DNA from: Methanothermus fervidus DSM 2088
Lineage (GTDB): Archaea; Methanobacteriota; Methanobacteria; DSM-2088; Methanothermaceae
Reading direction: 5' to 3'
DNA: 32,000 nucleotides
Assembly: GCA_000166095.1 (NCBI GenBank)
Contig: CP002278.1
Coordinates: 1,020,001-1,052,000 of the forward strand
The notes beneath the pieces are model-generated. The model saw only the letters and a list, made by a program, of their open reading frames with translations. It did no database searches and was not told the DNA's origin. Below are positions 7,537 through 29,933 of this stretch, piece by piece (the first letter of the stretch is position 1; the number at the start of each line of letters is the position of its first letter). The translations under genes and the position numbers were made by a program.

Positions 7537-7671
7537 AATATCCCTCCTACTTGAATTTATCTTTAAATGAAATATCCGCCAATAAAATTAAATATCTTGA
7601 AATATTCTATGGATTAACAATGCCTTTCATGCTCAACAAATCTACATTTAATTTTCCTTCAATTGTTTATC

Positions 7672-7679
7672 TTTATATA
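7672..7679. promoter_or_regulatory. Consensus archaeal TATA box (TTTATATA) of uncertain orientation in the divergent control region
   Basis: Exact TTTATATA at 7672-7679. Its reverse complement, TATATAAA, is also TATA-like, so it could serve the minus-strand glycan operon (giving a leader of about 110 nt) or an unannotated plus-strand transcript. Confidence 0.3.
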
Positions 7680-7933
7680 AGTTGATATTACTAAGTGATA
7701 TTAAAATTAAAAAACCAGTTTTAAGGGTTAAAGAATGAGAATAAACATTTTCCTATAAAAATATTTTTAGATATCTAATATTTTCCTATTATACTTAACA
7801 TTTTATCTTTATTTACGATGACGCCCTCAAAGATTAGAGATTATTAATTAGATATATTAAAAGATTTTAATCTCTTTTTATTTTATCTAAAACAATTTCT
7901 CCTTGCTTCTTATCCACGTTTTCTTTCGAAAAA

Positions 7934-7941
7934 TTTATATA
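7934..7941 (+). promoter_or_regulatory. Archaeal TATA box with an A-rich BRE-like flank, for the 8027 gene
   Basis: GAAAAATTTATATATTGG contains an exact TTTATATA at 7934-7941. The usual TATA-to-TSS spacing of about 25 nt predicts a transcription start near 7962-7968, about 60 nt before the start codon. Confidence 0.45.
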
Positions 7942-7968
7942 TTGGTTTAATGTGTATGCCTTATTGTG

Positions 7969-7993
7969 GTGGGGCATCCAAAGGGTGCCCCAC
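7969..7993 (+). promoter_or_regulatory. GC-rich stem-loop in the 5' leader of the secreted cell-wall protein gene
   Basis: GTGGGGCA (7969-7976) is perfectly complementary to TGCCCCAC (7986-7993). The stem can extend inward (U-G, C-G, C-G) to 11 bp around an AAA triloop. It lies immediately after the predicted TSS and 5 nt before the GGAGGGAG SD at 7999-8006. Confidence 0.5.
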
Positions 7994-8026
7994 AAGTAGG
8001 AGGGAGATAATATTCCGCCGTGTAAA

Positions 8027-10294
8027 TTGAAGTTAGTGGGATTAATTCTAGTGAGCTTAGTCATACTAAGTCTCAATGGAGTGAACGCCCAGGCAAATAC
8101 AACTTTACAAAACACAACAACATCATACAACTCCTCTATCAGTGTAAATGCAGTGTGGGTAAAAGCATGGGACATGGAAAAAATGAATTTCACATCGGTG
8201 AAACATAAAAACATAACAGATGTTTTCCTTGAGCAGCAGGCATTTGAAAAACCAAAATTCCAAAACTCCACAAAAGAATTCATAAACAAGGCCAAGAATG
8301 AAAATATAAGAGTCCATGCATGGATAATGTGCTTAAGGCAAAACAATACATGGATAGACCCAGTTAAGCACCCTGAAATCAAAGATGTGCTAGTTCAGAA
8401 GGCAACTAAGTATATAAAGGAATACAACGTTGATGGAATACACCTAGATTACATAAGATATCCAGGAAATGCACCAAAGAATGGTACAGATATAATAGCA
8501 GATATAGTTAAGTATGTATATGAATCAGTGAAGAAGATAAAGCCAAATGCATTAGTTTCAGCAGCAGTTATGCCAGAAATGTGGGCTAACTATATATATG
8601 GCCAAGATTACACAAATATGTCAAGATATCTAGACTTCATTGTTCCAATGGCTTACAAAGGTAACTACAATGAAACAACTGAGTGGATAGGGAAAGTAAC
8701 TAGATATGTTGTTGAGCATTCATTAAAGCCAGTTGTCACAGGAATACTTGCATATAGATCAGATAAAAATCCTGTTAAGTTGCCAGCAAGTGAACTAGTC
8801 CAAGATATCAGGGCTGCATTGGAGAATGGTGCCAGTGGATTTGCTATATTCCACTATGGAATAATAGATAAGAAATTTTTCATGGATAATCCAATTGATG
8901 TCAGTATAAATCAAATAAAGGATGCTGCAGCTAGAGTAACCAAATTTATTGATGTAAACAACAGACTACCTAGATATGTAAAAATTGGTAACCAGGAAAT
9001 ATCCATTGCACAGTACCTATATCTTGTAGCTACTGCACTTAAACAAGGACTTAAAGGAACTGTAACAGTGATTAACGTTGACAATCCTGATAATTCAACA
9101 GTAATGGCTTTAAAAGGTAATATCAAAAAGAACGAGTACCTATCCTTAGCAAAAAGAGTTTCAGACTTTATAGAGTCATATGAAAAAGCACCTAATTTTG
9201 CTACATTTAAAAACCAAAAAATTTCGTTTGAACAATTAGTCGCCTTATTCTCTAAAGCCATAGCTAACAACTTACCTAGTTATATAAGTCTAGAGAAATT
9301 AAATGGCATAAAGTCAGGATATTCAGCATTTAGCGCTGGCAATCCATTAAACTACACCCGTATAGACACCACCATTAACAATCCAATAATCACAGTCTCA
9401 GACATACTTGATGCAGCAGCTAGAGTTAAAAAATTCATAGATACAAACCAAAGATTACCAAAAACAATAAAATTGGCCAACCAACAAATAAAACCTGCAC
9501 AGTTCTTATATTTAGCATGCAAAGTTATTACTGGCGACACATCAGCATTGTCTATACCAAACATGGCTGAAGCCATAAATGGAGACTCATTAACAACAAT
9601 AACATTGCCAAAAGACAAGTATGTTGATGTAGCAAGTAAGGTCATTAAATTCATGGATACAAACGGAAAAGCTCCCAATTTTGCAACAGTAGATGGAACA
9701 AAAATATATTACAAAGACTTAGTTTACATGGCAGCAAAGATACTAAACTTTTACAAAGATAAAAACAGACTACCAAATTATGTAACAATAGATCCAGACA
9801 TTACATCAAGACCTGAAAATACACCATACAGAGGTGAAGATATATCACAATACCTTAGAGCAACAGCAAATTGTCAAGTCAATGACCCAAGAATACAAAG
9901 TCTAGCTAAAGAATTAACAGCAAATGCTGCAAATGACTGGGAAAAAGCATCAAATATATTCAATTGGGTAAGAGATAACATAGATTACAGTTTCTACTAC
10001 AACACAATGAAAGGCGCAGTAGGAACTTTATTAACAAGGAAAGCAAACTGTTGTGACCATGCACATCTCTGTGTAGCATTATTCAGGGCAGCAGGACTCC
10101 CAGCAAGATATGTACATGGATATTGCCAATTTGTATCAGGAAACTGGTATGGACATGTCTGGGCTGAAGTATTAATTAATGGAGTATGGTATGCGGCAGA
10201 TGCAACAGCATTTTGTAATAGTTTAGGCGTTGTGAAAAACTGGAACCCAACTACAGCTACAATATATGGAAGATACGCAAGCCTACCTTTCTAA
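8027..10294 (+). CDS. Secreted three-module pseudomurein-associated protein: glycoside-hydrolase-like TIM barrel, 4 pseudomurein-binding-type repeats, and a C-terminal transglutaminase/Pei-like cysteine protease domain
   Basis: 755 aa with a TTG start. Signal peptide MKLVGLILVSLVILSLNGVNAQA. N-terminal domain carries the motif DGIHLDYIRYP (GHL/DUF4015-type D-Y-I-R-[YF]-P). Repeats read IKDAAARVTKFIDVNNRLPRYV and ILDAAARVKKFIDTNQRLPKTI. The C-terminus has a Cys-His-Asp set (KANCCDHAHL, GHVWAEV, AADAT). The start is uncertain because the SD is 20 nt away; an in-frame ATT at 8012 is 5 nt after the SD. Confidence 0.85.
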   Translation: MKLVGLILVSLVILSLNGVNAQANTTLQNTTTSYNSSISVNAVWVKAWDMEKMNFTSVKHKNITDVFLEQQAFEKPKFQNSTKEFINKAKNENIRVHAWIMCLRQNNTWIDPVKHPEIKDVLVQKATKYIKEYNVDGIHLDYIRYPGNAPKNGTDIIADIVKYVYESVKKIKPNALVSAAVMPEMWANYIYGQDYTNMSRYLDFIVPMAYKGNYNETTEWIGKVTRYVVEHSLKPVVTGILAYRSDKNPVKLPASELVQDIRAALENGASGFAIFHYGIIDKKFFMDNPIDVSINQIKDAAARVTKFIDVNNRLPRYVKIGNQEISIAQYLYLVATALKQGLKGTVTVINVDNPDNSTVMALKGNIKKNEYLSLAKRVSDFIESYEKAPNFATFKNQKISFEQLVALFSKAIANNLPSYISLEKLNGIKSGYSAFSAGNPLNYTRIDTTINNPIITVSDILDAAARVKKFIDTNQRLPKTIKLANQQIKPAQFLYLACKVITGDTSALSIPNMAEAINGDSLTTITLPKDKYVDVASKVIKFMDTNGKAPNFATVDGTKIYYKDLVYMAAKILNFYKDKNRLPNYVTIDPDITSRPENTPYRGEDISQYLRATANCQVNDPRIQSLAKELTANAANDWEKASNIFNWVRDNIDYSFYYNTMKGAVGTLLTRKANCCDHAHLCVALFRAAGLPARYVHGYCQFVSGNWYGHVWAEVLINGVWYAADATAFCNSLGVVKNWNPTTATIYGRYASLPF
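8906..9785 (+). repeat. Intragenic protein-coding repeats: four pseudomurein-binding-type modules arranged A-B-A-B with a period of about 163 aa (about 489 nt)
   Basis: A1 is aligned on D299 (nt 8921) and A2 on D462 (nt 9410). B1 starts at EYLSLAKRVSDFIESYEKAPNFATF (nt 9134) and B2 at KYVDVASKVIKFMDTNGKAPNFATV (nt 9617). The nucleotide copies are clearly diverged. Confidence 0.75.
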
Positions 10295-10324: not shown

Positions 10325-10420
10325 ACAAAAATAAATTTAATTCTTCATAAATATATTTATAATGATTAATCATAATAAATTATATATACTTCTTTTGCAC
10401 TACAAGTTTTTGTGATTAAG

Positions 10421-11140
10421 ATGTCTTTAAGATCTGTAAGATATTCTAAAAAATATTCAAGAGTCGTCATATATACAGAAGGATGTGTTTTCAATTGTAA
10501 GGGATGTTCTTATAAGGCAAAGATAAACAGGAATAGAATTAAGAAAAGAAATATCACAATTGACAAAATTAAAAAAATTTTGAAAATTTTTGATCCTAAG
10601 TACCTACATTTTGTTGGAGGTGAACCTCTTCATACACCGGAGGTATATGATATAGCTAATTTTTCTAGGAGATTAGGAATTAAAAATGTTATAGGACATT
10701 CAACAGGATGGTATCTTCCATCAAATGATTTCGATAAAATAAACATAACAATAAAGTCCTACAACAGTGAAATTCATAAGGAGTATACTGGCTACTCTAA
10801 TAAAAGAATTTTGAGAAATTTCAAAAAATGTTATGAACTTGGCTTAAAGATTAAAGCAAGTACGGTTTTTATACCATCATTTATAGATGAAGAAGAAATT
10901 AAAAAAATTGCAAAATTTATAAGCAAAATTGATTCTTCAATACCTCTCCATATAACTGGCTACATTCCTATGCCAGGTACTCCTTGGAGAGCTCCAACCC
11001 AAAAAGAAATGGAAAACGTTGTAAAGATAACCAAAAAATACCTTAAAAATGTTACTTATTCTCTTTATAAAAATGTTGAAGAATACAGTAAGATGATAAG
11101 AGAAAATCCCCAATATCAAAGTGTTGAGATATTAGCATAA
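10421..11140 (+). CDS. Small radical SAM protein, PflA/NrdG activase-like
   Basis: Cx3Cx2C cluster motif in YTEGCVFNCKGCSY, plus the SAM-binding-like HFVGGEPL. ATG 10421 (MSLRS) is preceded by GTGAT. The track start GTG 10412 is the alternative. Confidence 0.75.
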   Translation: MSLRSVRYSKKYSRVVIYTEGCVFNCKGCSYKAKINRNRIKKRNITIDKIKKILKIFDPKYLHFVGGEPLHTPEVYDIANFSRRLGIKNVIGHSTGWYLPSNDFDKINITIKSYNSEIHKEYTGYSNKRILRNFKKCYELGLKIKASTVFIPSFIDEEEIKKIAKFISKIDSSIPLHITGYIPMPGTPWRAPTQKEMENVVKITKKYLKNVTYSLYKNVEEYSKMIRENPQYQSVEILA

Positions 11141-11141
11141 A

Positions 11142-12494
11142 TCATCTTGATTCATTTTTTGAAAATGAAATTAACAGTATACCAATTATTGATAGGAATA
11201 AGAAAACTAGCATTGATAATTCCATAACTGTTGTAAAGACTGGACCATTCACTTTAGCCCCTGTTTTTGAATAGAAATGTAATATAGAGATAATTACACC
11301 CATACCAGTACATTGTCCAACAACTCTAAAGGTACTTAATGTTGCTGATGCAACACCGAAAAATCTTTTTTTAACAGAACTCATGACCATGTTTGTATTT
11401 GATGGTGAAAATAGTGCAAATCCAGATCCCATTAAAAATAAACCTAAATATAATAACATTTCATTCTTTTGCATAGAGAATAATATGAAAGTAGTTATAG
11501 CAGTTGCTATAGATAGCATTCCTCCAGCTGCTACATATCTAGGGTTCAACTTATCTGAAAGTCTTCCTCCAAGAGGTGCCAGTGTAGCAATAGTAACTGG
11601 TTGAAGTGATAGAACTAGACCTGTTTTTTGTGGACTAAATCCCTGAAATGATTGTAAATAATAACTTAAAAGAAATGTAATAGGATAAGCAGCAGTGTAA
11701 GTGACTAACATTGCAAGTCCATTCCAGCTAAATTCACGTTTTTTCAATATTTTAGGATTAAAAACTGGGTCATCTACTCTATTTTCATAATTGTAAAGTA
11801 AGAAACTTAAGACACTGCCTAGAGAAACAAATAATAATCCCTGGGTTTCATATAATGAAGATACTCCTAATAATAAAAATATAAATGAAAATGCTAAAAA
11901 ATTAGAACCTTTAACATCGAAATCTTCTCCTTTTGCTTCTCTCCAGTCACCTTTTATCATTAAAGTTGCATAGCCACAAAGAATTGCAAGAGGAACATTG
12001 AAATAAAAAACCCCTCTCCATCCAAAATATTGGGTTAAAAATCCACCAATAGTAACACCTGAAAATAATCCCAAATAACTTCCAGTAGAAGATAATCCAA
12101 ATGCTCGTCCTCTTTTGTGTTTAGGAAATATAGATGCCAAAATAGCATTCACATTACTAAAAATCATTGCACTGCCAATACCTTGTAAAATCCTGAAAAA
12201 TATTATGGTTTCTCCTGTAGCTGAAATTCCAGCTAAAGCAGAAGAAATTGTAAATATAGTTATACCTAGCTGAAATATTCTTTTTCTACCATATATGTCT
12301 CCAAGTCTACCCATAGGTATTAACAAAGCTGCAAGAGTCATTAGGTAGGATGTAGGTATCCAACTGAGTATTGATGCTGAAACTCCTAATTCACGACCTA
12401 TTTCAGGTAGGGCTATATTTATAGAAGAGGTCACAAATGGCGTTAAAAAAGGCCCTACCAATGCTATTATTATTGCATATATGGATCTAGACAT
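11142..12494 (-). CDS. MFS transporter (drug:H+ antiporter-like)
   Basis: 450 aa, hydrophobic throughout. MFS motif A is GRLGDIYGRKRIF, located between predicted TM2 and TM3. Confidence 0.8.
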   Translation of the reverse strand: MSRSIYAIIIALVGPFLTPFVTSSINIALPEIGRELGVSASILSWIPTSYLMTLAALLIPMGRLGDIYGRKRIFQLGITIFTISSALAGISATGETIIFFRILQGIGSAMIFSNVNAILASIFPKHKRGRAFGLSSTGSYLGLFSGVTIGGFLTQYFGWRGVFYFNVPLAILCGYATLMIKGDWREAKGEDFDVKGSNFLAFSFIFLLLGVSSLYETQGLLFVSLGSVLSFLLYNYENRVDDPVFNPKILKKREFSWNGLAMLVTYTAAYPITFLLSYYLQSFQGFSPQKTGLVLSLQPVTIATLAPLGGRLSDKLNPRYVAAGGMLSIATAITTFILFSMQKNEMLLYLGLFLMGSGFALFSPSNTNMVMSSVKKRFFGVASATLSTFRVVGQCTGMGVIISILHFYSKTGAKVNGPVFTTVMELSMLVFLFLSIIGILLISFSKNESR

Positions 12495-12618
12495 ATGGTG
12501 TTTGTTCCTCCTGTAGGAACAATAACTTATCTAACCATTATATAAATGTTTCGTTTTATGATAATCAAACAAAAAATTAATAAAAAATTATAATCTTTAG
12601 GGAATGTAACATTTATTA

Positions 12619-13110
12619 ATGGAAATATTAGATGCATCTGCAATCATCTGCGGTTATAAACCAAAGAAAAAAGCATTTACAATTCCTGAAGTAACATCAG
12701 AAATTAAAGATATAAGATCAAAACAATTTTTAAATTCTTTATTAAAGAAAAGAATTCTGGAAATAAAAGACGTAGATGAAAAAACTATTAAAGATACAAA
12801 GAAAATTTTAAGAAAGATAGCTGATATCTCAAAATTATCATTCACTGACATAAAACTTATTTCCCTGGCAATCTCCATTCATAAAAAAGGTGAAAATGTT
12901 GTGGTTGTTACAGATGATTATATGGTGCAAAATGCTTTAAAGATACTTAAAATTCCTTTTATTAGTTTATTAAGTCAGGGTATTAAACAGGTGTACAGAT
13001 GGGTGAAAATATGTACTGGTTGTAAAAAAATATATCCTGAAGAATATAAGGGTAAAGATTGTGAGATATGTGGGTCACCAATTGTAAAGAAAAGAATTAG
13101 CAAAAATTAA
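12619..13110 (+). CDS. nob1: Nob1-like PIN-domain endonuclease with C-terminal zinc ribbon (small-subunit pre-rRNA 3'-end processing)
   Basis: 163 aa. PIN acidic residues occur in MEILDASAIICGY and VVVTDDYMVQN. The zinc ribbon is CTGC-x16-CEIC. Size and layout match archaeal Nob1. Confidence 0.7.
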   Translation: MEILDASAIICGYKPKKKAFTIPEVTSEIKDIRSKQFLNSLLKKRILEIKDVDEKTIKDTKKILRKIADISKLSFTDIKLISLAISIHKKGENVVVVTDDYMVQNALKILKIPFISLLSQGIKQVYRWVKICTGCKKIYPEEYKGKDCEICGSPIVKKRISKN

Positions 13111-13111
13111 T

Positions 13112-13654
13112 TTATTTCTCTAGTAATTTTTGCACTTCATTTGCCTTCATCACTTTACAACCAAGTATTTCTTTCATATATTTTAATGCCCATTCATGAT
13201 CTTCATTACTTAATGCACTTACTCCATCTTCAACAATTATCACGTCATACCTAGCATAATACGCATCTATCGCTGTATGAAATACACATATATGTGTATG
13301 TATTCCTGTTAACACCAAAGTATCAATATTTAAATCTCTTAAAATATAATCTAGACCTGTTTCTCTAAAACCGCTGTATGACCTCTTATACAAAACTATA
13401 TCCTTATCTTCAGGTTTTAATTCATCAATTATTTCACTTTCCGGACTTTCTGCCATTGCATGAGGGCCCCATATCTTTAGTTCATGATCAAAATGGAAAT
13501 GCTTGTCAGCAAGATATATAATTGGTATTTTATTTTCTCTTGCAACTTTGATTAATTCTTTTATAACTGGTATTATTTTTCTTGATTCTGGACTACTAAG
13601 TTTCCCATGTACAAATTCTTCCAACATGTCAATTATCAGAAGTGCTATTTTCAC
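13112..13654 (-). CDS. Isochorismatase-family cysteine hydrolase (nicotinamidase-like)
   Basis: Asp-Lys-Cys signature: ALLIIDM, LYKRSYSGF, TGIHTHICVFHTAIDA. The likely start is GTG 13654 (MKIALLIIDM), preceded by GGTGAT. The track start TTG 13684 would add an unlikely hydrophobic extension. Confidence 0.75.
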   Translation of the reverse strand: MKIALLIIDMLEEFVHGKLSSPESRKIIPVIKELIKVARENKIPIIYLADKHFHFDHELKIWGPHAMAESPESEIIDELKPEDKDIVLYKRSYSGFRETGLDYILRDLNIDTLVLTGIHTHICVFHTAIDAYYARYDVIIVEDGVSALSNEDHEWALKYMKEILGCKVMKANEVQKLLEK

Positions 13655-13791
13655 AATAATCACCCAAAAATATTCAAGCAACAACTTTTAAACAAATTTT
13701 AATAATAATTTTTATTTCAACCTTTCAAACTTATAAATGTAAAATAAAAATATTACTAACTATAAATAAAATATTATCATTGCGGGATAGA

Positions 13792-14901
13792 ATGTTAAAG
13801 ATAGGCGTTGTTGTCCATGGCCCACACATCATAGATACAGGATATGCATTAAAAATAATCAAACTTCTAGAAAGGTATGGGAAAGTAAAGGCCGTACTTG
13901 GTGGAACAATGGGTAGAACGGCAGTGTATGATGCACATCTTGAGAATATTATAGATATATCAAAAAAAAGGTTGCCAAGTGAATCTATAGATATGTTAGC
14001 AAAAGAATGTGACTTTGTATTCCTATTAGATTATGGAAAGTCAAAAATTACTGGTCATGCATTTGGATATAAGGTTTTTAAAAAATTAAAAACAAATCCT
14101 AAATTAATACAAATTGAAAGACCTGGAGAAAAGGATGGCACCATCATCGTATGGAACAAAAAAGCTGAAAATTTTGCAAAAAAAATTGCTAAAAAATTAA
14201 AATTAAAGTTAGTTAAAAAAGAAGACGTTGAAAAGGAGATAAAAGGTAAAATAATCTATGAAAAAAATGGAAAAAAATATAGGAGAGTATTGGGGGTTTC
14301 AAAAGGAGAAAACATATTTGTTAATGGGATCGTCGTTGGAAAAGCAAAATCTGATGAAGTGACTTTAGTTGCTAAAAATGGCATCATCATTGATATAATA
14401 GGTGGGAAATTGAAAAAACATGGAGTAGAAAAATTAGGGAAAGTAGATTTAGAAAAAGCAATAATAAAAACAGGTCTTTTAAGAAGATCAGAAGTAAAAG
14501 CACGAAAAGTTATAAAACGAAAATCTAAAAAAGAATTTAATGTAGGATTTTTAGATCACGCTGCTGAAGATGTATACCAATTAAAAAATTGTGATGTTGT
14601 TGTAACAATTGGAGATGATACTACATTAGTAGCATCTGATATTTTATATAGGTTTGATGTCCCTGTTATTGGAATAACTGATGGAGATGTTGATAAAGTT
14701 GTTAAAAAAGGTTTTAAAAATCCAGGATCCATGATTATAGAAGTTGAAAAAGGATGGGATGACAAGATAGGTAAGATAATCTTGTCAAAAATATTTAAAA
14801 ACAAAAAATACATTAAAATTAAAAATATTAATAAGTTAAAAAGAAAAATTCAAGAAATTATCAACAAGATGAACATAAAATATAATATAAAAGAATTTTG
14901 A
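13792..14901 (+). CDS. Conserved archaeal protein of unknown function. First gene of the methanogenesis-marker operon.
   Basis: 369 aa from ATG 13792 (MLKIGVVVHGP), or 373 aa from TTG 13780. Two globular parts are joined by a Lys-rich linker (KKAENFAKKIAKKLKLKLVKKEDVEKEIKGK). The C-terminal part has VVVTIGDDTTLVASD and PVIGITDGDVD. The gene ends 9 nt before mmp2. I cannot place it in a named family with confidence; it may be DUF2117-like. Confidence 0.6.
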   Translation: MLKIGVVVHGPHIIDTGYALKIIKLLERYGKVKAVLGGTMGRTAVYDAHLENIIDISKKRLPSESIDMLAKECDFVFLLDYGKSKITGHAFGYKVFKKLKTNPKLIQIERPGEKDGTIIVWNKKAENFAKKIAKKLKLKLVKKEDVEKEIKGKIIYEKNGKKYRRVLGVSKGENIFVNGIVVGKAKSDEVTLVAKNGIIIDIIGGKLKKHGVEKLGKVDLEKAIIKTGLLRRSEVKARKVIKRKSKKEFNVGFLDHAAEDVYQLKNCDVVVTIGDDTTLVASDILYRFDVPVIGITDGDVDKVVKKGFKNPGSMIIEVEKGWDDKIGKIILSKIFKNKKYIKIKNINKLKRKIQEIINKMNIKYNIKEF

Positions 14902-14910
14902 GGTGTAGAA

Positions 14911-15888
14911 TTGGACCTAAATAACCTTGTAAAATCTATCAAAAATTTTGAAGGAGTAACACGAAAAAAATCAATAAGCAAGTTACTTTCAATATTAGGA
15001 AACTCTGATAAGATCTCAGGCCATACATACTTAAGTTATGGAGACGATGCAGCAGCAATAAAACTTGGAAATGGAAAGCTATTATTGTTAGCTGCAGATG
15101 GAATATGGGACAAACTTATGAAAGCAGATCCTTATTGGGCAGGATATTGTTCAGTGTTAGTTAATGTCAATGACATTGCTGCTATGGGTGGAGAACCACT
15201 AGCAATGGTAAATGTTCTGTCTATTAAAGACGAAAACACTTGTTTTAAAGTAATGGAAGGTGTAAGAGAAGGAGCAAAAAAATTTGGAGTCCCAATGGTT
15301 GGTGGTCATTTACATCCTGCAACACCATACAATGTATTAGATGTTTCAATAGTTGGTATAGTATCTGAAGATTCTGTAATTACAAGTCATAATGCAAAAA
15401 TTGGAGATAAAATAATCATTGCTATAGATCTTGATGGAAACATCCATCCAAACTTTCCATTAGCATGGGACACTACAACACATAAGAATTCAAAATTAGT
15501 GAGAGCTCAAATAAAAGCAATGAAAAAAATAGCCTCTAAAAAGCTTGTAAATGCTGGGAAAGACATTAGCAATCCTGGAACGATTGGAACATTGGGAATG
15601 ATGCTAGAAGCATCCAATACAGGGGCAATTGTTGAATTAGATAAAATACCTAGAAATGAATCTGTTGAATGGGAAAGATGGTTAAAACTTTATCCTGGTT
15701 CTGGATTTGTATTTAGTTGTCCAGAAGAATGTGTTGAAGAATGCATAGAAATCTTAAGTAAAGTAAATTTAACAGCTAATGTTGTTGGCGAAATAATCCC
15801 TGACAGAAAACTGTATCTTAAATACAAAAATACCAAAAAAATCGTTTTTGATTTTAGGAAAGAATATATAGTAGGTCTTAGATCTTAA
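14911..15888 (+). CDS. Methanogenesis marker protein 2 (PurM/ThiL/HypE/SelD-superfamily ATP-utilising enzyme)
   Basis: 325 aa with a TTG start, 5 nt after GAGGTG. It has the AIR-synthase-related signature SYGDDAAAIKLGNGKLLLLAADGIW and sits in mmp operon context. Confidence 0.75.
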   Translation: MDLNNLVKSIKNFEGVTRKKSISKLLSILGNSDKISGHTYLSYGDDAAAIKLGNGKLLLLAADGIWDKLMKADPYWAGYCSVLVNVNDIAAMGGEPLAMVNVLSIKDENTCFKVMEGVREGAKKFGVPMVGGHLHPATPYNVLDVSIVGIVSEDSVITSHNAKIGDKIIIAIDLDGNIHPNFPLAWDTTTHKNSKLVRAQIKAMKKIASKKLVNAGKDISNPGTIGTLGMMLEASNTGAIVELDKIPRNESVEWERWLKLYPGSGFVFSCPEECVEECIEILSKVNLTANVVGEIIPDRKLYLKYKNTKKIVFDFRKEYIVGLRS

Positions 15889-15963
15889 AATATATTATGA
15901 AAGAGTTAATTAGGGATAATGTTAATATCTATTTCTCAAAATTTGTGAGCAGAGGGATATAAT

Positions 15964-17496
15964 TTGCTAGTTGAAGTTAATGGGAAAAAAGTGGATTTAC
16001 CGCCAGGAGCTACAGTGAAAGATGCTATAGAGAAAACAAATGCTCCTTATAAAAAAGGATGTATCATAGGGATAGTAAAGGCTGCCAAAGAAATTGAAAA
16101 ACATGTAGACAGATATAGAATAAAAACAAATAAAGGTAGTATCATTGTAGAATTAGAGAATGTGCCTGAATTAACAAGAGTTTGGAAAGAAAAATATAAA
16201 AATTTTATTGGGCAGAAAATTAGATGGACATCCTCAGAAGAAGTAGCAATTGGACCTATTAAAACTGAGTTAAAACCTACAAAAGAAGAATTTGAATATA
16301 AGGAAGGAGAAGTAATTTTAAGTCTATCAGGGTTTAGTCCTGAAACAACACATGTGATATTTTGTAGAGAAGATCATTCTTCTGTATATGCTGTACCACC
16401 ATATAATAGAGGTGTGTTTGCTAGAGTTATAGGCGGAAGAAGAACCTTGCACTTGTTGGAAAATGAAGATAAAATAATATCAATTGAACCTATTATTGAG
16501 CGTGAAAGTATTGTGAAAAGTGCAACCACAACAGACGTTAACACAAAATTAGAAGAAGGAAATAGAGTTTTTACTTATGTTGAAGTTCATCCAGTTCCAG
16601 AATCACCAAAATCTGTAGAACATTTTTTAATAATGACTGAAAACAATAAGATGAAAGTTGATTATGAATCAAATTCATTTGTAGGTTTTTATGCCTTTGA
16701 AGGTATAGGTAGAGGTGTTGAATTAATTAAGGAAAGGAAAAGAGGATCTGTAACACTTAGGAATAGAGGTAAAGGAATTGGACGTATATATATTTACAGA
16801 GAGGATAGAGTATCAACGCCTTCTCATAACTTAGTAGGTTATGTGAATAAAGGAATGGAATTGATAGACATAGCAAAAAAAGGAGATTATATAACTGTTG
16901 TGTCTAAACCAGGCAGAATATCAACAATTTCAATGACTCAAAAAGAAGCAGAGAAATTCTTAGATGGTTATGAAATTAAACAAGTAAGAGATGGTGTAAA
17001 AGACGACAATGCAATAATTGTAAAGCAAGAACCAAGATATACTATGGAAATTCTTAAAAAAGGTGAAGTTAGGACTTTTGGTGTCGAACCTGAAAAAATT
17101 GTTGAATTAGAGGTATATGATGACAAGGCACCGAAATCTAGTTGGTATTTCAGAAGAATAACAGGACTCATTGATAACCCAATTGGAAAATTAAAAGTTC
17201 ATTTCTCATTTCCTGGCATGAATTTAATAATGTTTGAAGGAAATACTAAAGAATCTAAAGGACTAGTTCCAGAAAACACTCCAAAAGATTGTGTTAAGGC
17301 AGGAGAAATTGGAATAACCAACATGTCTAGGAAGCATGTAGGTTTAATTGGTGTAAGATTTGAGGACAACGAAGAATTTGGACCCACAGGTGAACCTTTT
17401 AGTGGCACTAATATAGTAGGAAAAATAACTAAAGGATTTAATAATTTAGAAAAACTTAAAGATGGAGACATTATATATGTCAAAGAAAGAAAATAA
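15964..17496 (+). CDS. Methanogenesis marker protein 3 (UPF0288 family)
   Basis: 510 aa with a TTG start after GAGGGA. Size and position (directly after mmp2, before mmp6) match the conserved marker cluster. The N-terminal 40 aa look like a ThiS-like beta-grasp. Confidence 0.65.
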
Positions 17497-17902
17497 AATT
17501 ACGAAAATGATAATATTAGGGCCAGATGCTAGATTTAACCCCCAAGAACTTGTGCGTAGGATACATATGTTAGGATTACCCATTACAATTAAAGAAACTT
17601 GTTATGGTGCTTTAATTCATGGAGAAAAAGAATACATAAAAAAGGCTGAAAAAGAAATCAGGAAATTCGATATATACAACATTTTTATTAAAGAAAGAGG
17701 ATTTCCACCAGGAGATCCAAGAAGATGCAGAGCTCACAGGGGAGGAGCTAGAGAAGGTTACCACCAACTTGAAAAAGAGTTTAGAGCATTAAAATACGTA
17801 AGTGAAGCTCTGAAACACCCACGCAAAGTTAGTTTAGAAGAACCTAAAAAGTTGCCAGTAGAAGTTTTTCGCGATATAGTTAAAAAAATGGTGGAAAAAT
17901 GA
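17477..17902 (+). CDS. Methanogenesis marker protein 6
   Basis: About 141 aa from ATG 17477, with GGAGA 9 nt upstream. Alternative starts are at 17462 and 17507. It has the conserved-looking motif [23 protein letters not shown]. Its stop overlaps the next start as ATGA. Confidence 0.6.
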
Positions 17903-18249
17903 AAATAACTAATTCATCTGATGCAGAAGAATTAGAAAATTTAGCTTTAGCAATTCATGAACTGGTAAATAGATTACCATTAACAATGAGAAGCAAAGAA
18001 AAAAGAGGCCTGCGAATTGAAAATGGGAAGGTAATAGATTACAACTATACAGGACCTGTGTTGGAAAAAGTACTAAAAACCGGTAAAATATGTAAAGAAA
18101 CACCAAATGAGGGTCCATATAAAGGTATACCTGTTGTTGTAGTTCCTCTAAAAGAAAACGGAGAAGTCATTGCAGCAATTGGAGTAGTTGACATAACTAA
18201 AGGCGTTTATAGTGACGTAGTTGAGATATCCCGCCGTCCTAAACTTTAG
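17899..18249 (+). CDS. Small conserved archaeal protein (DUF2111-like) embedded in the marker operon
   Basis: 116 aa, in an ATGA overlap with mmp6. It is followed by an AGGAGGA SD for the next gene. The family name comes from memory of methanogen operon annotation and is unverified. Confidence 0.5.
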
Positions 18250-18260
18250 GAGGAAAAATA

Positions 18261-18707
18261 ATGAAAGTTTTAATTTTTCCACCAAATTCACTTATACTGG
18301 CAGATCTAGTTGAAAGAAAAGGCCATGAACCATTAATTTTACAAAAAGAAATAAGACATAAAGTTACGGATCCAGAAATAGATTCTCCTCCCCTAAATAT
18401 TAGACCGGAGGATGCATTGAAAGGTTTAAAATATGCAGCTATAGAAGTTCCATCAGGTGTTAGAGGTAGAATGTCTATTTTAGGACCACTGATAGAAAAA
18501 GCTGAGGCAGCTATTATTATGGAAGAAGCACCATTTGCCTTTGGTTGTGTAGGATGTGCAAGAACTAATGAACTCTGCATTCACCTCATTAAGAAAAAAG
18601 GAGTGCCTATCTTAGAAGTAAAATATCCTGAAACTAAAGAAGAAGCAATAGATGTAGTAAACAAAATAAATACATTTTTAGACAAATTGGAGGCCAAAAA
18701 TGGTTAA
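18261..18707 (+). CDS. Methanogenesis marker protein 5
   Basis: 148 aa. The N-terminus [25 protein letters not shown] and the Cys motif [13 protein letters not shown] match my recollection of this family. AGGAGGA lies 6 nt upstream of the ATG. Confidence 0.6.
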
Positions 18708-19926
18708 AATAGCCCAAATATCTTGTGGTACAGAGTATAGTGGTATTCAAAAAGAAATTGAAAGAGCGGCTGAAACTTTTGGAGCTGAGATAGTAATTCC
18801 CGAAACAGATTTAGACTATATAAATGATGCATACGAAAGATTTGGATTTAAATGTGCCAGTTCATCATTAAAATTAATGATAGCTAGAGCAATGTCTGTT
18901 GTTGAGGGTAAAACAAAAGCAGACGCTGTATTCATAGCCACATGTTTTAGATGTGCAGAAGGGGCTATTGTAAGAAATGAAATAAGAAAATTTATACAAG
19001 AAAACACGAATTTACCAGTTGTAACATATTCATTTACGGAAAGAACAAAAGCAGAAGAGCTATTTATAAGAATGGAAGCATTGTCAACAGTAGTTTCCAG
19101 AAAAAGCCTACTTGCAAGAGAAAAACAAGAAGGAATCACTTTAGGCATCGATTCTGGTTCAACAACAACTAAAGCTGTTGTAATGGAAGATAATGAGGTC
19201 ATAGGTACTGGTTGGGTTCCAACAACCGATGTTATAGAATCAGCTGAAAAAGCTGTAGATATGGCATTAAAAGATGCTGGATATACAATGAAAAAAATAG
19301 AAGGAATCGGAGTCACTGGTTATGGAAGGTTAACACTTGGAAAGCATTTTAATGCTGACTTAGTACAGGAAGAGTTAAGTGTAAACTCAAAAGGTGCCGT
19401 GTTTTTAGCAGATAGACAGAGAGGTGAAGCTACAGTAATAGACATTGGTGGAATGGATAATAAAGTTATAACTGTAAATAATGGAATTCCTGACAATTTT
19501 ACTATGGGAGGAATATGTGCAGGAGCTTCAGGAAGATTTCTTGAAATTACAGCACGAAGATTGGGAGTTGATATTGAAGATCTTGGAGATTTAGCTGTTA
19601 AAGGTAACTACCGGAATGTTCCTATGGATAGTTACTGTATAGTGTTTGGAATACAGGATTTAGTTACTTCTTTAGCAGCCGGAGCAAAAAAAGAAGATGT
19701 TGCTGCAGCAGCATGTCATTCAGTTGCAGAACAAGTTTATGAACAACAATTACAAGAAGTTGATATCAGAGAACCAATTATAGAGGTGGGTGGTACATCC
19801 TTAATTAAAGGATTAGTAGAGGCTGTAAGTGATATTCTTGGTGGTGCAGAGGTAATAGTACCTAATTATTCACAATATATAGGGGCTGTAGGTTCAGCAT
19901 TGTTAGTTTCAGGAATTATTAAATAA
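18700..19926 (+). CDS. Methanogenesis marker protein 15 (BadF/BadG/BcrA/BcrD-HgdC-type ATPase with an N-terminal extension of about 140 aa)
   Basis: 408 aa. ASKHA phosphate-1 motif [14 protein letters not shown]. HgdC-like cluster-ligand contexts [11 protein letters not shown] and YCIVFG. The gene overlaps mmp5 by 8 nt. Confidence 0.75.
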
Positions 19927-20820
19927 TTATTTCAAAACATCATACAACCTTAATTTATACTCTCCTAATTTTCCACCATAATTTCCTGCAGAAATTCTTA
20001 AGACACCATCAACAGTAGTTGCAGCTTCTATGCCAACTTTCATTGCTTCCTTAATTTTATCTTCTTTCAATCCATTTATAACAATTTCAGGGATATATTT
20101 AACACCTTCAGGCACCTTAGAATCTTTTCCAAGTCTAGATTTTAATGATGGACAATAAGGATGATTTGTTGTTGGTCCTATCCAAGGATAATTTGTTTCT
20201 GGTTTTGACGCAGCTGAACATACATCAAAAGGTGTAATAACATAATCTATTTTATTTATAGCCTTTATAATTTTTTCACCTGCTTCTAAAACAGCTTCTT
20301 TGGTTTCACACATATACCAAAAATTTGCACCCATTATTCCTTTTTGATAACCAATTTTCCTCTCAATTTTGAAGTCAGGCACTGTAATCGGTACAACAAT
20401 CATTTTTCTTCCATATAACTCTTCTTCCCATTCATATCCATCTCCACAATGTCCAACATATTTCATAGTGTCGATATGTCCATCAGCATCTAATTCTAAA
20501 TTAAATAATGTTGTGAATGGTTTAACTAAAATATCTTGTCTAATCCTATATGATAACTCTACTTCAAATTTTTTTAAATCTTTTTTTCCAAACCAAAATT
20601 GTAAAATGGCACCAGGTCTTCCATCAGGAGTCTTAGACTTATCTACAAATTTTTCAACTCCTCCTTCGATTCTTCCTATTACAGCTCCAGGCGTTGATGT
20701 TGCATCATAAGCTGCTTTCTTTAAAGTATTTTTATCTTCTGCTGTAATCAATACCCTAGCACAAACTCCATAAAAAGCCTCACAAAAAGTATCTTCAATA
20801 AAAACATCGTTGATATACAC
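19927..20820 (-). CDS. Formylmethanofuran:tetrahydromethanopterin formyltransferase homologue (divergent Ftr paralogue, FtrII/EhaS-like)
   Basis: 297 aa, the length of Ftr. Ftr-like blocks include [24 protein letters not shown] and [16 protein letters not shown] start 20820 overlaps the upstream TAG as TAGTG, with AGGAGGT 8 nt upstream. Confidence 0.75.
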
Positions 20821-22751: not shown

Positions 22752-23036
22752 CTATTCAAGTTTTGAAAATAAACGCCATATATCTGGATATTTATCTTTA
22801 ATGGCCTTTTCTATCAAAGTTGAAGCTTCTTTACTTATACTAAACCCTGGTTTTGTCTTTTTCAAATATCTTAAAACTGCAGCTGCCCTCATAGACCACA
22901 ATGTTATTCTGGGATTATTTTTAACTTCTCTTATAACTTCTTCAACCTTTTTATCTTTTAACATTGTTCCAAGGCTTTCATCCTCTGTTTTTATCAATGC
23001 ATCAAGGCCCTTTCCAAGGCTTTTATTTCTTTTCAT
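22752..23036 (-). CDS. 94-aa ParA partner protein: ParB-type N-terminal peptide plus a predicted ribbon-helix-helix-like body (SegB/mini-ParB-like)
   Basis: The N-terminus MKRNKSLGKGLDALIK matches the ParB/Spo0J N-terminal LG(R/K)GLxAL ParA-activating motif. The remainder (RITLWSMRAAAVLRYLKK...SKEASTLIEKAIKD) reads as strand-helix-helix. The ATG overlaps the parA 3' end by 14 nt, with GGAGGAAG 3 nt upstream. Confidence 0.6.
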   Translation of the reverse strand: MKRNKSLGKGLDALIKTEDESLGTMLKDKKVEEVIREVKNNPRITLWSMRAAAVLRYLKKTKPGFSISKEASTLIEKAIKDKYPDIWRLFSKLE

Positions 23037-23808
23037 TATCTTCCTCCAATTTAATCAACTCTTTTGCTAACTTAAAGTATGCTTTAGAACCATTACAATC
23101 TTTATCATAAATTATGCATGGCATCCCGTGACTTGGAGCTTCTGCTAAACGTATATTTCGTGGTATTGTTGTCTTAAAAATATATTCTTTTGAAGAAAAG
23201 AAATTTTTAACTTCTTGATAAACTTCCCTGGCTAGACGTGTTCTTCTATCATATAATGTCAACAATATACCTTTTATTGGGCACGGACTATTTAAACGAT
23301 TCTCAACTAACTTAATAGTTCTTAATAGATCAGCTATTCCTTCTAATGCATAATATTCCGTCTGTATTGGTATTATAACACTATCACATGCAACCAATGC
23401 ATTCAATGTCAATATTCCCAAAGATGGGGGCGTGTCAATAAATATATAATCATAATCATTCTTTATTGGATCTATCGCTTCTTTAAGCACTGCATGAGAT
23501 CCTATTTGGCTAATAAGTTCTACTTCTGCCCCACTGAGGTCAAGATTACTTGGAATAATATAAAGATTAGGAATGGATGTTTTCCTAATGACCTCCTCTG
23601 CTTTTGCTTCTCCACAAATAATTGAATATACACTACTATCTAACTTAAATTTATTTATTCCAAAACCTGTTGTTGCATTTGCTTGTGGATCCATATCTAT
23701 TACAAGAATTTTCTTGTTTAAAGATGCAAGTGCAGCCGATAAATTCACTGCCGTTGTAGTCTTACCACAACCGCCTTTTTGATTTGTTATTGATATTATT
23801 TCACCCAT
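23023..23808 (-). CDS. parA: ParA/Soj-type partition ATPase (deviant Walker A)
   Basis: 261 aa. Motifs NQKGGCGKTTTAVNLSAALA, VIDMDPQANAT, IFIDTPPSLG, PIQTEYYALEG and IPRNIRLAEAPSHG are collinear with bacterial chromosomal Soj. GGAGGATC lies upstream of the start. Confidence 0.85.
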   Translation of the reverse strand: MGEIISITNQKGGCGKTTTAVNLSAALASLNKKILVIDMDPQANATTGFGINKFKLDSSVYSIICGEAKAEEVIRKTSIPNLYIIPSNLDLSGAEVELISQIGSHAVLKEAIDPIKNDYDYIFIDTPPSLGILTLNALVACDSVIIPIQTEYYALEGIADLLRTIKLVENRLNSPCPIKGILLTLYDRRTRLAREVYQEVKNFFSSKEYIFKTTIPRNIRLAEAPSHGMPCIIYDKDCNGSKAYFKLAKELIKLEEDNEKK

Positions 23809-23822
23809 TAAGATCCTCCAAA

Positions 23823-25391
23823 TTAATTAATCATGCCTCTTTCAATCTTAATGTTTATTGGATCTAATGGTTTATTAACATCTACTCCTTTTTCGTTAGC
23901 CCATTTTTCTATTCCCTTCAGAAGAAATCTTAAACCTAATTTTATCAAAGGAGAAATCAATGTAGCTAACAAACCTTTTTTTACCATTTTAAATCCTCGT
24001 CTAAATTCCCAAAGAATCTGTTTCCAGGCATGGTAAATATGTAATAACTCTCCCTTTGTTAATTCCTCATTGATGTTAAAAAACTCTTTATCTTTTAAAT
24101 ATCCCATTGGTACAAAAGAAAGCGGTACAACTACAAAATGTGCCTTTTTACCCAATTTCTCTCTCAATACCTTTCTCATCGTAATTATCAGTCTTGCTGT
24201 ATAAATTTCATCCTCCTCTGTTGCACCAGGCAAGCCCACAATACTTGTATAAGCAGGGAACCAAAAATATTTATTGAGAAGGTAGGTACCATTTAACAAT
24301 ACTTGTGGCCATTCATCAACATTGAATGGTTTTGCTTTATTACTTGCAATTTTCTTTAATAAAGATGGTGAGGCAGTTTCAAATCCTATTTGGACACCTA
24401 CCCATCTATTTGGGCCAGCATTATTTAATTTTGCTATCTCTTTTATAATTCTAGGTGCAGCTAATGCACTAGCAATATTTGCATGAGTAGGATTTGCATA
24501 ATTTACAATTTTAAGAACTTCCTTAAATAAGTTGATTACAGCTTCTTCATTTGGATTATATTCCTTTTTATCTTCTAGCATGTAACTAAATATATCCTCA
24601 CTATGGAGCCATGCGTTGTTTTGTCCAGCACTTTTATTTACTTTAATCTCTCTAATAATCTTCTTAATTGGATAGTATCTTACTTTCCTAATATTAGGAT
24701 CACAAAATTTACATCCGCGACCACAACCTCTCATAACTTCTACCATTCCTTTATATGATGGGCCTACAATAGTTGGTATTTCATTTGCAGATGGTTGGTC
24801 CCTAATGAGAATTATCTCATCAGCTTTCTCAACCTCAATATCTTTAAATATTTCAGCAATTTTATGTTCTGTTTCACCAATTATTAAATGATCAATTTTT
24901 AATTTTTTCATTTCATATTCTTTGGCTTTTAATTGCCAAGCCCCAGAACCTCCAACTACAATTTTAAAATCTAAATTTTTTCTTTCCCTATAACTATTTA
25001 TTCTATCAACAAGCGATGTAAACTTTATTTTTGTATAAGATGGAAATCTTCCACCCTCAGTAAACATCATTGTAAGTGGTCCTAAACCCAATGGATCCAT
25101 AGCTGTAACAGCCACTATCTTTGTATTTTCATCAATAAATTTTTCTACATATTTAGGATGAACGACTGCTACTTCGTCTCTTCTATACTTTTTAAGTAAT
25201 GCTGCTTCTACCTTACGTAAAGAATATGGTGCAAAAATTAGTCTGCCATTTTTATGTGGGACTTGAGTATCTATAATTCTATAAAGTATTGGAGGTATTC
25301 TTTGTGGAGGTACACATCCTAGAAAATCCGAAAGTGGTAAATTTCTATAAGTTGATGTTAATGTTTCGTCAGCAGTTAAAACAATTTTCAA
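23823..25391 (-). CDS. Radical SAM protein with an N-terminal B12-binding-like (Rossmann) domain. Function unknown.
   Basis: 522 aa with a TTG start after GAGGGA. The Cx3Cx2C motif is in VMRGCGRGCKFCDP. The N-terminal 200 aa (VAVTAMDPLG, IVVGGSGA) resemble the cobalamin-binding-like domain of class B radical SAM enzymes. Confidence 0.7.
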   Translation of the reverse strand: MKIVLTADETLTSTYRNLPLSDFLGCVPPQRIPPILYRIIDTQVPHKNGRLIFAPYSLRKVEAALLKKYRRDEVAVVHPKYVEKFIDENTKIVAVTAMDPLGLGPLTMMFTEGGRFPSYTKIKFTSLVDRINSYRERKNLDFKIVVGGSGAWQLKAKEYEMKKLKIDHLIIGETEHKIAEIFKDIEVEKADEIILIRDQPSANEIPTIVGPSYKGMVEVMRGCGRGCKFCDPNIRKVRYYPIKKIIREIKVNKSAGQNNAWLHSEDIFSYMLEDKKEYNPNEEAVINLFKEVLKIVNYANPTHANIASALAAPRIIKEIAKLNNAGPNRWVGVQIGFETASPSLLKKIASNKAKPFNVDEWPQVLLNGTYLLNKYFWFPAYTSIVGLPGATEEDEIYTARLIITMRKVLREKLGKKAHFVVVPLSFVPMGYLKDKEFFNINEELTKGELLHIYHAWKQILWEFRRGFKMVKKGLLATLISPLIKLGLRFLLKGIEKWANEKGVDVNKPLDPINIKIERGMIN

Positions 25392-27208: not shown

Positions 27209-28126
27209 TTGTGTGGAATAGCAGGGATCGTATGTAAAGATAAAAAAGTGCATAATGTAGGTAAATTGATGACTAAAATGCTTCAAACACTACAACATAG
27301 AGGCCCTGATTCTGCAGGTTTTGCAATATATGGTGGATTAAAATTGAAAAAAAATGAATATTTATTAAACATTGAAGTAAAAGAAAAACCAGGATTACTA
27401 GATAGTGTCAAAAAAGTTATAGAGAGTGTCACAAAAATAAAAAAAGAAAAAATAATTCCTTCAGTTGAAGAATATGTTATTTATCGTTGTATAATCACCC
27501 TAAACTCATATTCAGAATTAAAACCATTAATAGTTGAGATAGATAAAATAGAAGGTGCAACTGTACTTAGTGGAAGCCATTCATTTGAGATGATAAAAGA
27601 TGTTGGGTCTGTAGTTGAAATTGCTGATCGCTATGATACATGGTCAAAGAAAGGTACTCATGCCATAGGTCATACAAGGTTTTCAACAGAGAGTATTGTA
27701 GATAGGTATCATGCACACCCATTCCAAAGTTATATAGTCCCTGATATTACAGTTGTTCATAATGGTCAAATAACAAATTATTGGAAAATAAGAGATCCTT
27801 TAGAAAGGAAAGGTCACATATTTGAAACAACAAACGATACAGAATGTATAGTTCATTATATAGCCGATAAACTTGCAGATGGATATTCTCTTGAAGAAGC
27901 ATTAGAAGAATCTGTTAAAGACATGGATGGTCCATTTTCTTATATTATAGCCACTCCAACAGGTATAGGAATTGCAAAAGATAAACTTGGCTTACGTCCT
28001 GGAGTAATGGCAGAAGATGACAATGTTTTTGCAATAGCATCTGAAGAAGTAGCATTAAGAGAAGTTGTAGATACTAGGTGTGTAGAACAAATAAACCCTG
28101 GTGAAGTAAGGGTTTATGAATTTTAA
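27209..28126 (+). CDS. Glutamate synthase, class II (Ntn) glutamine amidotransferase subunit (archaeal GltB domain 1)
   Basis: TTG start 8 nt after AGGAGGT, followed by the nucleophile Cys (M)CGIAGIV. Motifs GHTRFSTES, HNGQITN and NDTE. Confidence 0.85.
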   Translation: MCGIAGIVCKDKKVHNVGKLMTKMLQTLQHRGPDSAGFAIYGGLKLKKNEYLLNIEVKEKPGLLDSVKKVIESVTKIKKEKIIPSVEEYVIYRCIITLNSYSELKPLIVEIDKIEGATVLSGSHSFEMIKDVGSVVEIADRYDTWSKKGTHAIGHTRFSTESIVDRYHAHPFQSYIVPDITVVHNGQITNYWKIRDPLERKGHIFETTNDTECIVHYIADKLADGYSLEEALEESVKDMDGPFSYIIATPTGIGIAKDKLGLRPGVMAEDDNVFAIASEEVALREVVDTRCVEQINPGEVRVYEF

Positions 28127-28148
28127 TCTACAATCATAAGGTGACTAT

Positions 28149-28838: not shown

Positions 28839-28840
28839 AA

Positions 28841-29917: not shown

Positions 29918-29933
29918 ATAAGGAGATAATTAT

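Follow-up and report, generated by a model that had tools for sequence, protein, structure and literature searches.

The 32,000-nt window analysed here, the whole stretch from position 1,020,001 to 1,052,000 of Methanothermus fervidus DSM 2088 contig CP002278.1, contains a cluster of methanogenesis marker (Mmp) genes. Seven consecutive, tightly packed plus-strand open reading frames (ORFs) at 13792-19926 of the window follow each other in the order DUF2117-mmp2-mmp3-mmp6-DUF2111-mmp5-mmp15. It is a real, largely ordinary and already recognised gene cluster, present in M. fervidus in a rearranged form. We consider it rather probable that the seven genes form an operon that serves to activate methyl-coenzyme M reductase (MCR), in which Mmp15, Mmp5 and Mmp6 would act as an electron injector and Mmp2 and DUF2117 in maturation, and from which a tail of further genes was detached by rearrangement. 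Neither the position of nifB behind such clusters nor the idea of a sub-module within them is new, as both are already in the literature.

The families were assigned by comparing whole-protein scores with the curated NCBIfam cut-offs and the Pfam gathering thresholds (Table 1). An earlier reading made from the letters of the window (the sequence-only reading) had named mmp2, mmp3, mmp5, mmp6 and mmp15, and all five proteins score above the cut-offs of the respective hidden Markov models (TIGR03267, TIGR03268, TIGR03271, TIGR03272 and TIGR03286), with full-length profile coverage in each. DUF2111 is matched by Pfam PF09884 and by no NCBIfam model. The six genes of the operon as first described are all present, and the count has to be raised to seven, because the start at 13792 belongs to an additional gene, DUF2117. 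The G+C content of the window is ~31%, and that of the M. fervidus V24S chromosome is 31.64% (PMC3035299); M. fervidus is a hyperthermophile, and no other genus of Methanothermaceae has been sequenced.

The genes are closely joined. The mmp6 stop and the DUF2111 start overlap in an ATGA at 17899-17902, as read from the sequence, the mmp15 ATG at 18700 creates an 8-nt overlap with the end of mmp5 (18700-18707), and mmp3 and mmp6 overlap by 20 nt when the ATG at 17477 is taken. On four independent contigs, gene callers set the DUF2117 start at 13792 and the mmp6 start at 17477, the latter giving 141 residues. The 9-nt spacer before mmp2 contains GAGGTG and the 11-nt spacer before mmp5 contains AGGAGG. 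The spacer before mmp3 is 75 nt long, so the coupled run extends strictly from mmp3 to mmp15. The single translationally coupled unit proposed earlier therefore keeps its two junctions at 17899 and 18700 but is confined to this part. From the spacing and the opposite-strand flanking genes, the seven genes are predicted to be co-transcribed as one operon. Since an isochorismatase-family gene on the minus strand splits the mmp operon from the upstream PIN6 gene, the operon would need a promoter of its own, which presumably lies in the 107-nt AT-rich intergenic region. This region holds the TATA-like CTTATAAA at 13730 and TATAAATA at 13761, 31 nt upstream of the ATG (read from the sequence).

At its right end the operon stops abruptly against a convergent gene, as had been noted earlier. 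The mmp15 stop codon (19924-19926) directly abuts the stop codon of ftr, with 0 intergenic bases between them. An assembly artefact is ruled out, as contigs of at least five sequencing runs made independently share the junction. Past mmp15, a stretch of five or more T residues first occurs at 20271, 345 nt inside ftr, and on the minus strand the first such stretch past ftr is at 19686-19692, ~235 nt inside mmp15. The mmp15 and ftr transcripts probably overlap in antisense at their 3' ends.

Related loci were collected with a two-sequence Mmp15 alignment, taking one genome per species, and the best 80 loci, all from the sister family Methanobacteriaceae, were translated in six frames and matched to the window proteins and to NCBIfam-verified seeds. 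The identity in Mmp15 is 75-81%. A diverse Mmp5 alignment was dropped as a seed for the locus search, being too divergent. The near-universal order is PIN6, DUF2117, mmp2, mmp3, mmp6, DUF2111, mmp5, mmp15, mmp17, nifB, mtnA, trm5b (other strand) and dph5. The gene mmp17 comes directly after mmp15 in every locus with room for it (79/79), mostly with a gap of -20 to +40 nt, and a short NifB-type radical SAM gene follows mmp17 in 69 of 70 loci. PIN6 directly precedes DUF2117 on the same strand (59/59 loci; 6 nt apart in L093). As in M. fervidus, DUF2117 heads the cluster in the 66 related loci that were found to carry it, and it lies immediately 5' of mmp2 wherever both were detected. For the two Methanothermobacter tenebrarum-like loci L093 and L094, which hold the closest DUF2117 relatives, gene calls made independently and labelled by Pfam give the same order. 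This arrangement is in line with the published cluster of M. marburgensis, where further Mmp genes (MTBMA_c04360-c04410) are followed by nifB (PMC12176620).

Judged by the 80 loci together with L093 and L094, the M. fervidus cluster shares with that of M. marburgensis the run mmp3-mmp6-DUF2111-mmp5-mmp15 and the upstream DUF2117-mmp2 pair. Unlike the latter, it stops at mmp15, with no mmp17, nifB or mtnA at that place, and ftr occupies the slot that mmp17-nifB holds in Methanobacteriaceae. In addition, the isochorismatase-family gene that separates PIN6 from DUF2117 was found at this position in M. fervidus and in none of the related loci. The missing mmp17-nifB tail and this extra gene are what is special to M. 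fervidus; the nearest homologues of its DUF2111 and DUF2117 proteins are only ~70% identical to them, as fits the isolated family Methanothermaceae. Neither mmp7 nor an A2-type ATPase is among the common flank families of ten loci, and none lies within 10 kb in L093 or L094. The operon had been described as lacking mmp17, mmp7 and component A2. It is indeed peculiar to this genome that mmp17, and likewise nifB, is missing from the cluster, whereas the lack of mmp7 and A2 is normal for the cluster in Methanobacteriales.

No match to the methan_mark_7, methan_mark_17, A2, McrC or NifB models was obtained for any other window ORF of at least 120 residues or for the 94-residue ORF at 22752-23036, and the window radical SAM genes at 10412-11140 and 23823-25391 do not match the NifB model. 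The 10 kb past the right end of the window carry no mmp7, mmp17, atwA, mcrC or nifB; they encode a phosphoenolpyruvate-utilising enzyme, peptidases, Amt/PII/GlnA and S-adenosylmethionine synthetase. An extension of ~1.5 kb beyond the left end contains unrelated genes only. The sequence-only reading had considered that mmp17, mmp7 and atwA might lie just outside in the same transcription unit, but genes on the opposite strand enclose the operon at either end. When Mmp17 from the nearest relative served as query, none of the best 120 matches was attributable to M. fervidus. One protein taken up as a candidate M. fervidus Mmp17, P0355, belongs to another metagenome-assembled genome with the usual arrangement.

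The break behind mmp15 is interpreted as a genome rearrangement, from which no more follows than that co-transcription of mmp17-nifB with the other genes is not required. Because mmp17 also lies inside the Methanosarcina operon, it is mildly favoured that its adjacency was lost in M. fervidus rather than gained in Methanobacteriaceae. The operon may carry no modular meaning: neutral rearrangement in a small and strongly reshuffled genome would have left it over from an ancestral cluster, and its proteins would act together with Mmp7, Mmp17 and A2 as elsewhere. We give this view about an even chance. It agrees with the observation that neither flank of the block is like that of any related locus and that a further gene separates PIN6 from DUF2117, with the report that Mmp homologues are 'widely dispersed' in Methanococcus maripaludis (PMC12176620), with the insertions that break up Methanobrevibacter clusters (an IS1182 transposase, a metal-ATPase cassette, an adhesin-like gene), and with the retention of the complex subunit Mmp3 inside the unit. 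Two observations speak against it: the block from DUF2117 to mmp15 has stayed in order and tightly coupled in two families although its surroundings changed, and the gene fusions described below show that at least Mmp6, Mmp5 and Mmp15 are a real physical unit. A neutral origin is compatible with our preferred explanation, an activation operon with a detached tail, except on the significance of the breakpoint. The separable sub-module suggested earlier thus draws little from gene order, given the position of Mmp3, the dispersal in Methanococcus and the insertions in Methanobrevibacter, and the fusions and the cysteines of Mmp15 speak for a narrower unit of Mmp6, Mmp5 and Mmp15.

The link of the operon to MCR activation is formed by Mmp3. 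Ramirez-Amador et al. (Nature 2025, PMC12176620) purified McrC together with Mmp7, Mmp17, Mmp3, A2 and a DUF2098 protein, as the sequence-only reading had stated for the first five, and the complex contains three L-cluster-like [8Fe-9S-C] clusters leading to F430 (PMC12176620). The M. fervidus Mmp3 matches chain J of the Methanococcus maripaludis complex (8S7V, 8S7X and 9H1L; E 1.9e-102, residues 14-508). It is a clear orthologue of this chain and, as judged by this match, belongs to the structural subunits of the activation complex. Among the subunits of the complex, Mmp3 is the only one encoded in the window, and the other six operon proteins are not in the solved complex. In Methanosarcina acetivorans, the genes for Mmp5-Mmp6-Mmp17-Mmp7-Mmp3-Mmp15-A2 are co-transcribed and none of them could be deleted (bioRxiv 10.64898/2026.03.18.712670). 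The M. fervidus unit resembles this operon in its co-oriented mmp5, mmp6, mmp3 and mmp15 genes and in its presumed role in forming Ni(I)-MCR. It differs in gene order and in the absence of mmp17, mmp7 and atwA, and it adds DUF2117, mmp2 and DUF2111, none of which is listed for the M. acetivorans operon.

Mmp15 is composed of an N-terminal Cys-containing domain (residues ~1-142) and an HgdC/BcrAD-type ATPase domain (residues 146-402). The latter matches the TIGR00241 activase model with 349 bits (cut-off 125) and PF01869 with 252 bits (threshold 31.5), in agreement with an ASKHA-fold ATPase. Its relatives in the PDB are 4EHT, 1HUX and 9GAI (HadI, E 4e-33; HgdC, E 2e-30), and the alignment with these HgdC/HadI/BcrAD activases runs through residues 146-402 from end to end. 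Particularly, C273 and C313 of Mmp15 align with the two conserved cysteines of 1HUX (HgdC) and 4EHT (HadI), which in HgdC ligate the bridging [4Fe-4S] cluster between the subunits. A set of 81 Mmp15 sequences shows no variation at C9, C82, C85, C273, C313 and C339. Unlike HgdC-type activases, Mmp15 has an extra N-terminal domain of 140 residues, with three of the invariant cysteines, and is not accompanied by a nearby HgdAB/BcrBC acceptor, so the acceptor of an electron from Mmp15 must be of another kind. Mmp5 and Mmp6 are the likely partners.

The small proteins Mmp6 and Mmp5 also carry conserved Cys and His residues. Among 76 Mmp6 sequences, C42, C84 and H96 never vary and the conservation of H30 is 99%, and in Mmp5, C96 and C99 are invariant in Methanobacteriaceae. 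A PDB sequence search with the Mmp5 profile gave nothing useful. An exhaustive Mmp5 search of 1.84 billion proteins yielded only 92 representatives at 50% identity. Two of these are Mmp6-Mmp5 fusions (P0002 and P0007) and one is an Mmp5-Mmp15 fusion, all verified with NCBIfam. The Mmp5-Mmp15 fusion gene, encoding 581 residues, occurs with 84-100% identity in four independent metagenome contigs of ~52% G+C, where it adjoins a Liv/Urt-type ATP-binding cassette transporter and has no other mmp gene within 10 kb. These natural fusions, together with the HgdC-type cysteines of Mmp15, support the view that Mmp6, Mmp5 and Mmp15 form a physical unit. They likewise lend support to a role of this unit in ATP-driven electron delivery, which has already been proposed in the literature and for which gene order alone is insufficient.

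On this basis, the following course of events can be proposed for the activation operon. Mmp3 would be made here for the activation complex of McrC, Mmp7, Mmp17 and A2. Mmp15 would be an HgdC-like ATPase that dimerises around a bridging [4Fe-4S] cluster, and its ATP hydrolysis would push a low-potential electron onward. Mmp5 and Mmp6, as suggested by the fusions and by their conserved Cys and His residues, would be its physical partners. The three proteins together would feed the L-cluster chain of McrC/Mmp7, which reduces the nickel of F430 from Ni(II) to Ni(I). Mmp2, which is PurM/HypE-like, may perform an ATP-dependent maturation or loading step together with DUF2117, and DUF2111 may be a dispensable PAS/GAF-like accessory for ligand binding or a dispensable adaptor. 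The functions of Mmp5, Mmp6 and Mmp15 are still unresolved (bioRxiv 10.64898/2026.03.18.712670), as the sequence-only reading had held. A model of 2025, as cited in the same preprint, regards MMP15 as a candidate transiently bound ATPase.

Several points weigh against this proposal. The McrC pull-downs did not recover Mmp5, Mmp6, Mmp15, Mmp2, DUF2117 or DUF2111 (PMC12176620), and the membership of these six proteins in the complex rests on no experiment or structure. A2 hydrolyses ATP on MCR (bioRxiv 10.64898/2026.03.18.712670) and is thus a genuine ATPase acting there, which makes a second ATPase less needed. In a diverse set of Mmp5 sequences the first cysteine is present in 10 of 19 and the second in 17 of 19, the first not being conserved outside Methanobacteriales. 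Mmp5 and the N-terminal domain of Mmp15 gave a weak hhalign match (E ~0.009, probability ~5%), and no other pair of the small operon proteins gave any signal. No HgdAB/BcrBC-type acceptor domain was found in the operon proteins or their neighbours. Moreover, the Mmp17-query search (best 120 matches) did not find the places of mmp17, nifB, mmp7 and atwA in the M. fervidus genome. The loci compared come from two families, so an ancestral attachment of mmp17-nifB is no more than mildly favoured.

A stronger form of the electron-delivery idea is possible but doubtful in our opinion. The seven genes would then specify a second, self-contained machine driven by ATP, in which a dimer of Mmp15 joins Mmp5 and Mmp6, is tuned by the PAS/GAF-like DUF2111 and docks only transiently on McrC/Mmp7/Mmp17. 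The split from mmp17-nifB and the stand-alone Mmp5-Mmp15 fusions of other archaea would mark the boundary of this module. Such a machine would supply the physiological low-potential electron that is replaced by Ti(III) citrate in vitro. Activation in vitro was achieved only with Ti(III) citrate, and the authors presume that further Mmp proteins are needed under physiological conditions (PMC12176620).

The main competing explanation assigns these proteins to biogenesis and not to electron delivery. Mmp2, DUF2117, Mmp5, Mmp6, Mmp15 and DUF2111 would load a NifB-made [8Fe-9S-C] cluster into McrC/Mmp7 or mature these scaffolds, with Mmp2 and Mmp15 using ATP. The nifB gene that follows the cluster in nearly all Methanobacteriaceae loci fits this explanation. 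So do reports that NifB is essential in methanogens lacking nitrogenase and is the proposed maker of the clusters of the activation complex (PMC12176620), and the superfamily of Mmp2 (HypE/SelD/ThiL) includes enzymes of cofactor maturation. Proteins that do not co-purify with the mature complex would also be expected of assembly factors. However, nifB is not adjacent in M. fervidus, the stand-alone Mmp5-Mmp15 fusion gene does not lie beside nifB, and among solved proteins those closest to Mmp15 are not cluster carriers but activases for electron transfer, which have the same cluster cysteines. We regard biogenesis as rather unlikely to be the main function.

Mmp2 contains the AIRS and AIRS_C domains, and its relatives in the PDB are PurL, ThiL, PurM, HypE and SelD. 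Its residues C80, H133 and H135 are invariant in 70 sequences. These relationships identify Mmp2 as a predicted ATP-using enzyme of the PurM/ThiL/SelD/HypE superfamily, and our literature search found no reported function for it. Members of the superfamily such as PurM, PurL and HypE use ATP to activate carbonyl or amide oxygens, a chemistry that would also suit an ATP-dependent post-translational modification of McrA installed by Mmp2 with DUF2117 and unrelated to reductive activation. Other marker proteins, for example Mmp10, have been reported in the literature as McrA-modifying enzymes. We consider such a modification improbable, as nothing in our analysis ties Mmp2 to McrA and the 69 related loci that yielded an mmp2 gene have it embedded among genes of the activation complex. 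A maturation or loading step within the activation operon remains the role that we prefer for Mmp2.

Two operon proteins are known by their Pfam families only, and PDB sequence searches with DUF2117 and DUF2111 gave nothing useful. The AlphaFold2 model of DUF2111 has a pLDDT of 88.9, and its best Foldseek matches in the PDB are PAS/Cache/GAF sensor domains, which are weak but consistent (E ~2e-3, TM ~0.5). No conserved cysteine is found in the aligned DUF2111 sequences. DUF2111 is present in Methanobacterium, Methanothermobacter and M. fervidus. It is absent between mmp6 and mmp5 in the Methanobrevibacter-type loci L025, L077, L078, L080, L081, L083, L084 and L086 and is therefore a dispensable accessory. 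The mmp6-mmp5 gap measures 20-200 nt in L025, L077, L078, L081 and L086 and is larger in L080, L083 and L084; in L023 and L054 it is ~375 nt, where a diverged or damaged DUF2111 copy is possible. In L084 (M. acididurans, Methanobrevibacter), an IS1182 transposase gene lies between mmp6 and mmp5 (7717-9237) and a 1230-residue adhesin-like ORF between mmp17 and nifB (12174-15863). Within the mmp6-mmp5 gap of L083 (M. curvatus), positions 5567-8798 hold genes for an ArsR regulator and a heavy-metal P-type ATPase as well as an ICMT-like gene. The AlphaFold2 model of DUF2117 (pLDDT 89.1) is composed of three alpha/beta and beta domains. Foldseek found no full-length match for it in the PDB, and the pieces matched are weak and Rossmann/NAD-kinase-like (TMq <= 0.23). 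DUF2117 and DUF2111 are further candidates that travel with the cluster and are off the usual marker lists.

Table 1 Features of the mmp operon and its surroundings (window positions) and contig positions of the Mmp5-Mmp15 fusion gene. Bit scores are followed by the cut-off or threshold where one is given.
Feature	Coordinates	Strand	Evidence and remarks
PIN_6 and Nob1-type zinc-ribbon gene (PIN6)	12619..13110	+	PF17146, E 2.7e-13; weak Zn_ribbon_NOB1 match
Isochorismatase-family hydrolase gene	13112..13684	-	PF00857, E 1.2e-44; left operon boundary
AT-rich intergenic region, 107 nt	13685..13791	+	Putative promoter of the operon
DUF2117 gene	13792..14901	+	PF09890, 460 bits (25), model 1-325/325; 369 residues; first gene of the operon
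mmp2	14911..15888	+	TIGR03267, 508 bits (365); AIRS and AIRS_C domains; TTG start
mmp3	15964..17496	+	TIGR03268, 691 bits (234); TTG start
mmp6 (DUF2102)	17477..17902	+	TIGR03272, 160 bits (126); PF09875; 141 residues; alternative ATG at 17462
DUF2111 gene	17899..18249	+	PF09884, 132 bits (27), model 1-83/83; 116 residues
mmp5 (DUF2112)	18261..18707	+	TIGR03271, 243 bits (140); 148 residues
mmp15	18700..19926	+	TIGR03286, 759 bits (456)
ftr (formylmethanofuran:tetrahydromethanopterin formyltransferase)	19927..20820	-	NF002554, 361 bits; FTR and FTR_C; right operon boundary
Mmp5-Mmp15 fusion gene	L096:10001-11743; L097:10001-11743; L098:4894-6636; L099:1-1725		

The PIN6 gene scores 187 bits against NF009145, below the curated cut-off of 223. 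It is a conserved upstream neighbour, and its function is probably unrelated to the cluster. Downstream of ftr, the minus strand at 22752-25391 encodes a 522-residue radical SAM protein, a ParA/MinD-type ATPase and a 94-residue protein without family. The radical SAM protein has weak similarity to TIGR04013 (B12-binding/radical SAM) and faint similarity (33 bits) to the model of the MCR glutamine C-methyltransferase.

Other parts of the window contain genes of different functions. The plus-strand ORF at 8027-10294 encodes a protein of 755 residues that combines a GH18-like domain with five pseudomurein-binding repeats and a domain of the transglutaminase/Pei-like type (peptidase C71) and that matches no NCBIfam model. 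By its domains it is likely a hydrolase of the pseudomurein cell wall, and a protein with pseudomurein-binding repeats fits the order Methanobacteriales. On the minus strand at 4449-7536, two tandem paralogous genes encode PMT_2-type glycosyltransferases of 517 and 516 residues without NCBIfam match; the pair sits in a glycosylation cluster with epimerase, AglJ-like GT2 and GT4 genes. Four plus-strand genes at 27209-31433 resemble a split archaeal-type glutamate synthase, with GATase, GXGXG, FrhB-like and ferredoxin plus FMN (GltB) parts, and are followed just past the end of the window by the Amt, PII and GlnA genes.

The source of the ~-650 mV electron for Ni(I)-F430 in vivo is an open question, which the M. 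fervidus locus does not answer and makes no more testable than the better-studied model organisms do. What our analysis adds is a gene block that two families have kept in common, to which one of them joins a fixed mmp17-nifB tail, and Rosetta-stone fusions that link Mmp6, Mmp5 and Mmp15. The comparative picture, the fusions and the two DUF proteins together provide a short list of proteins to be reconstituted with the known activation complex.

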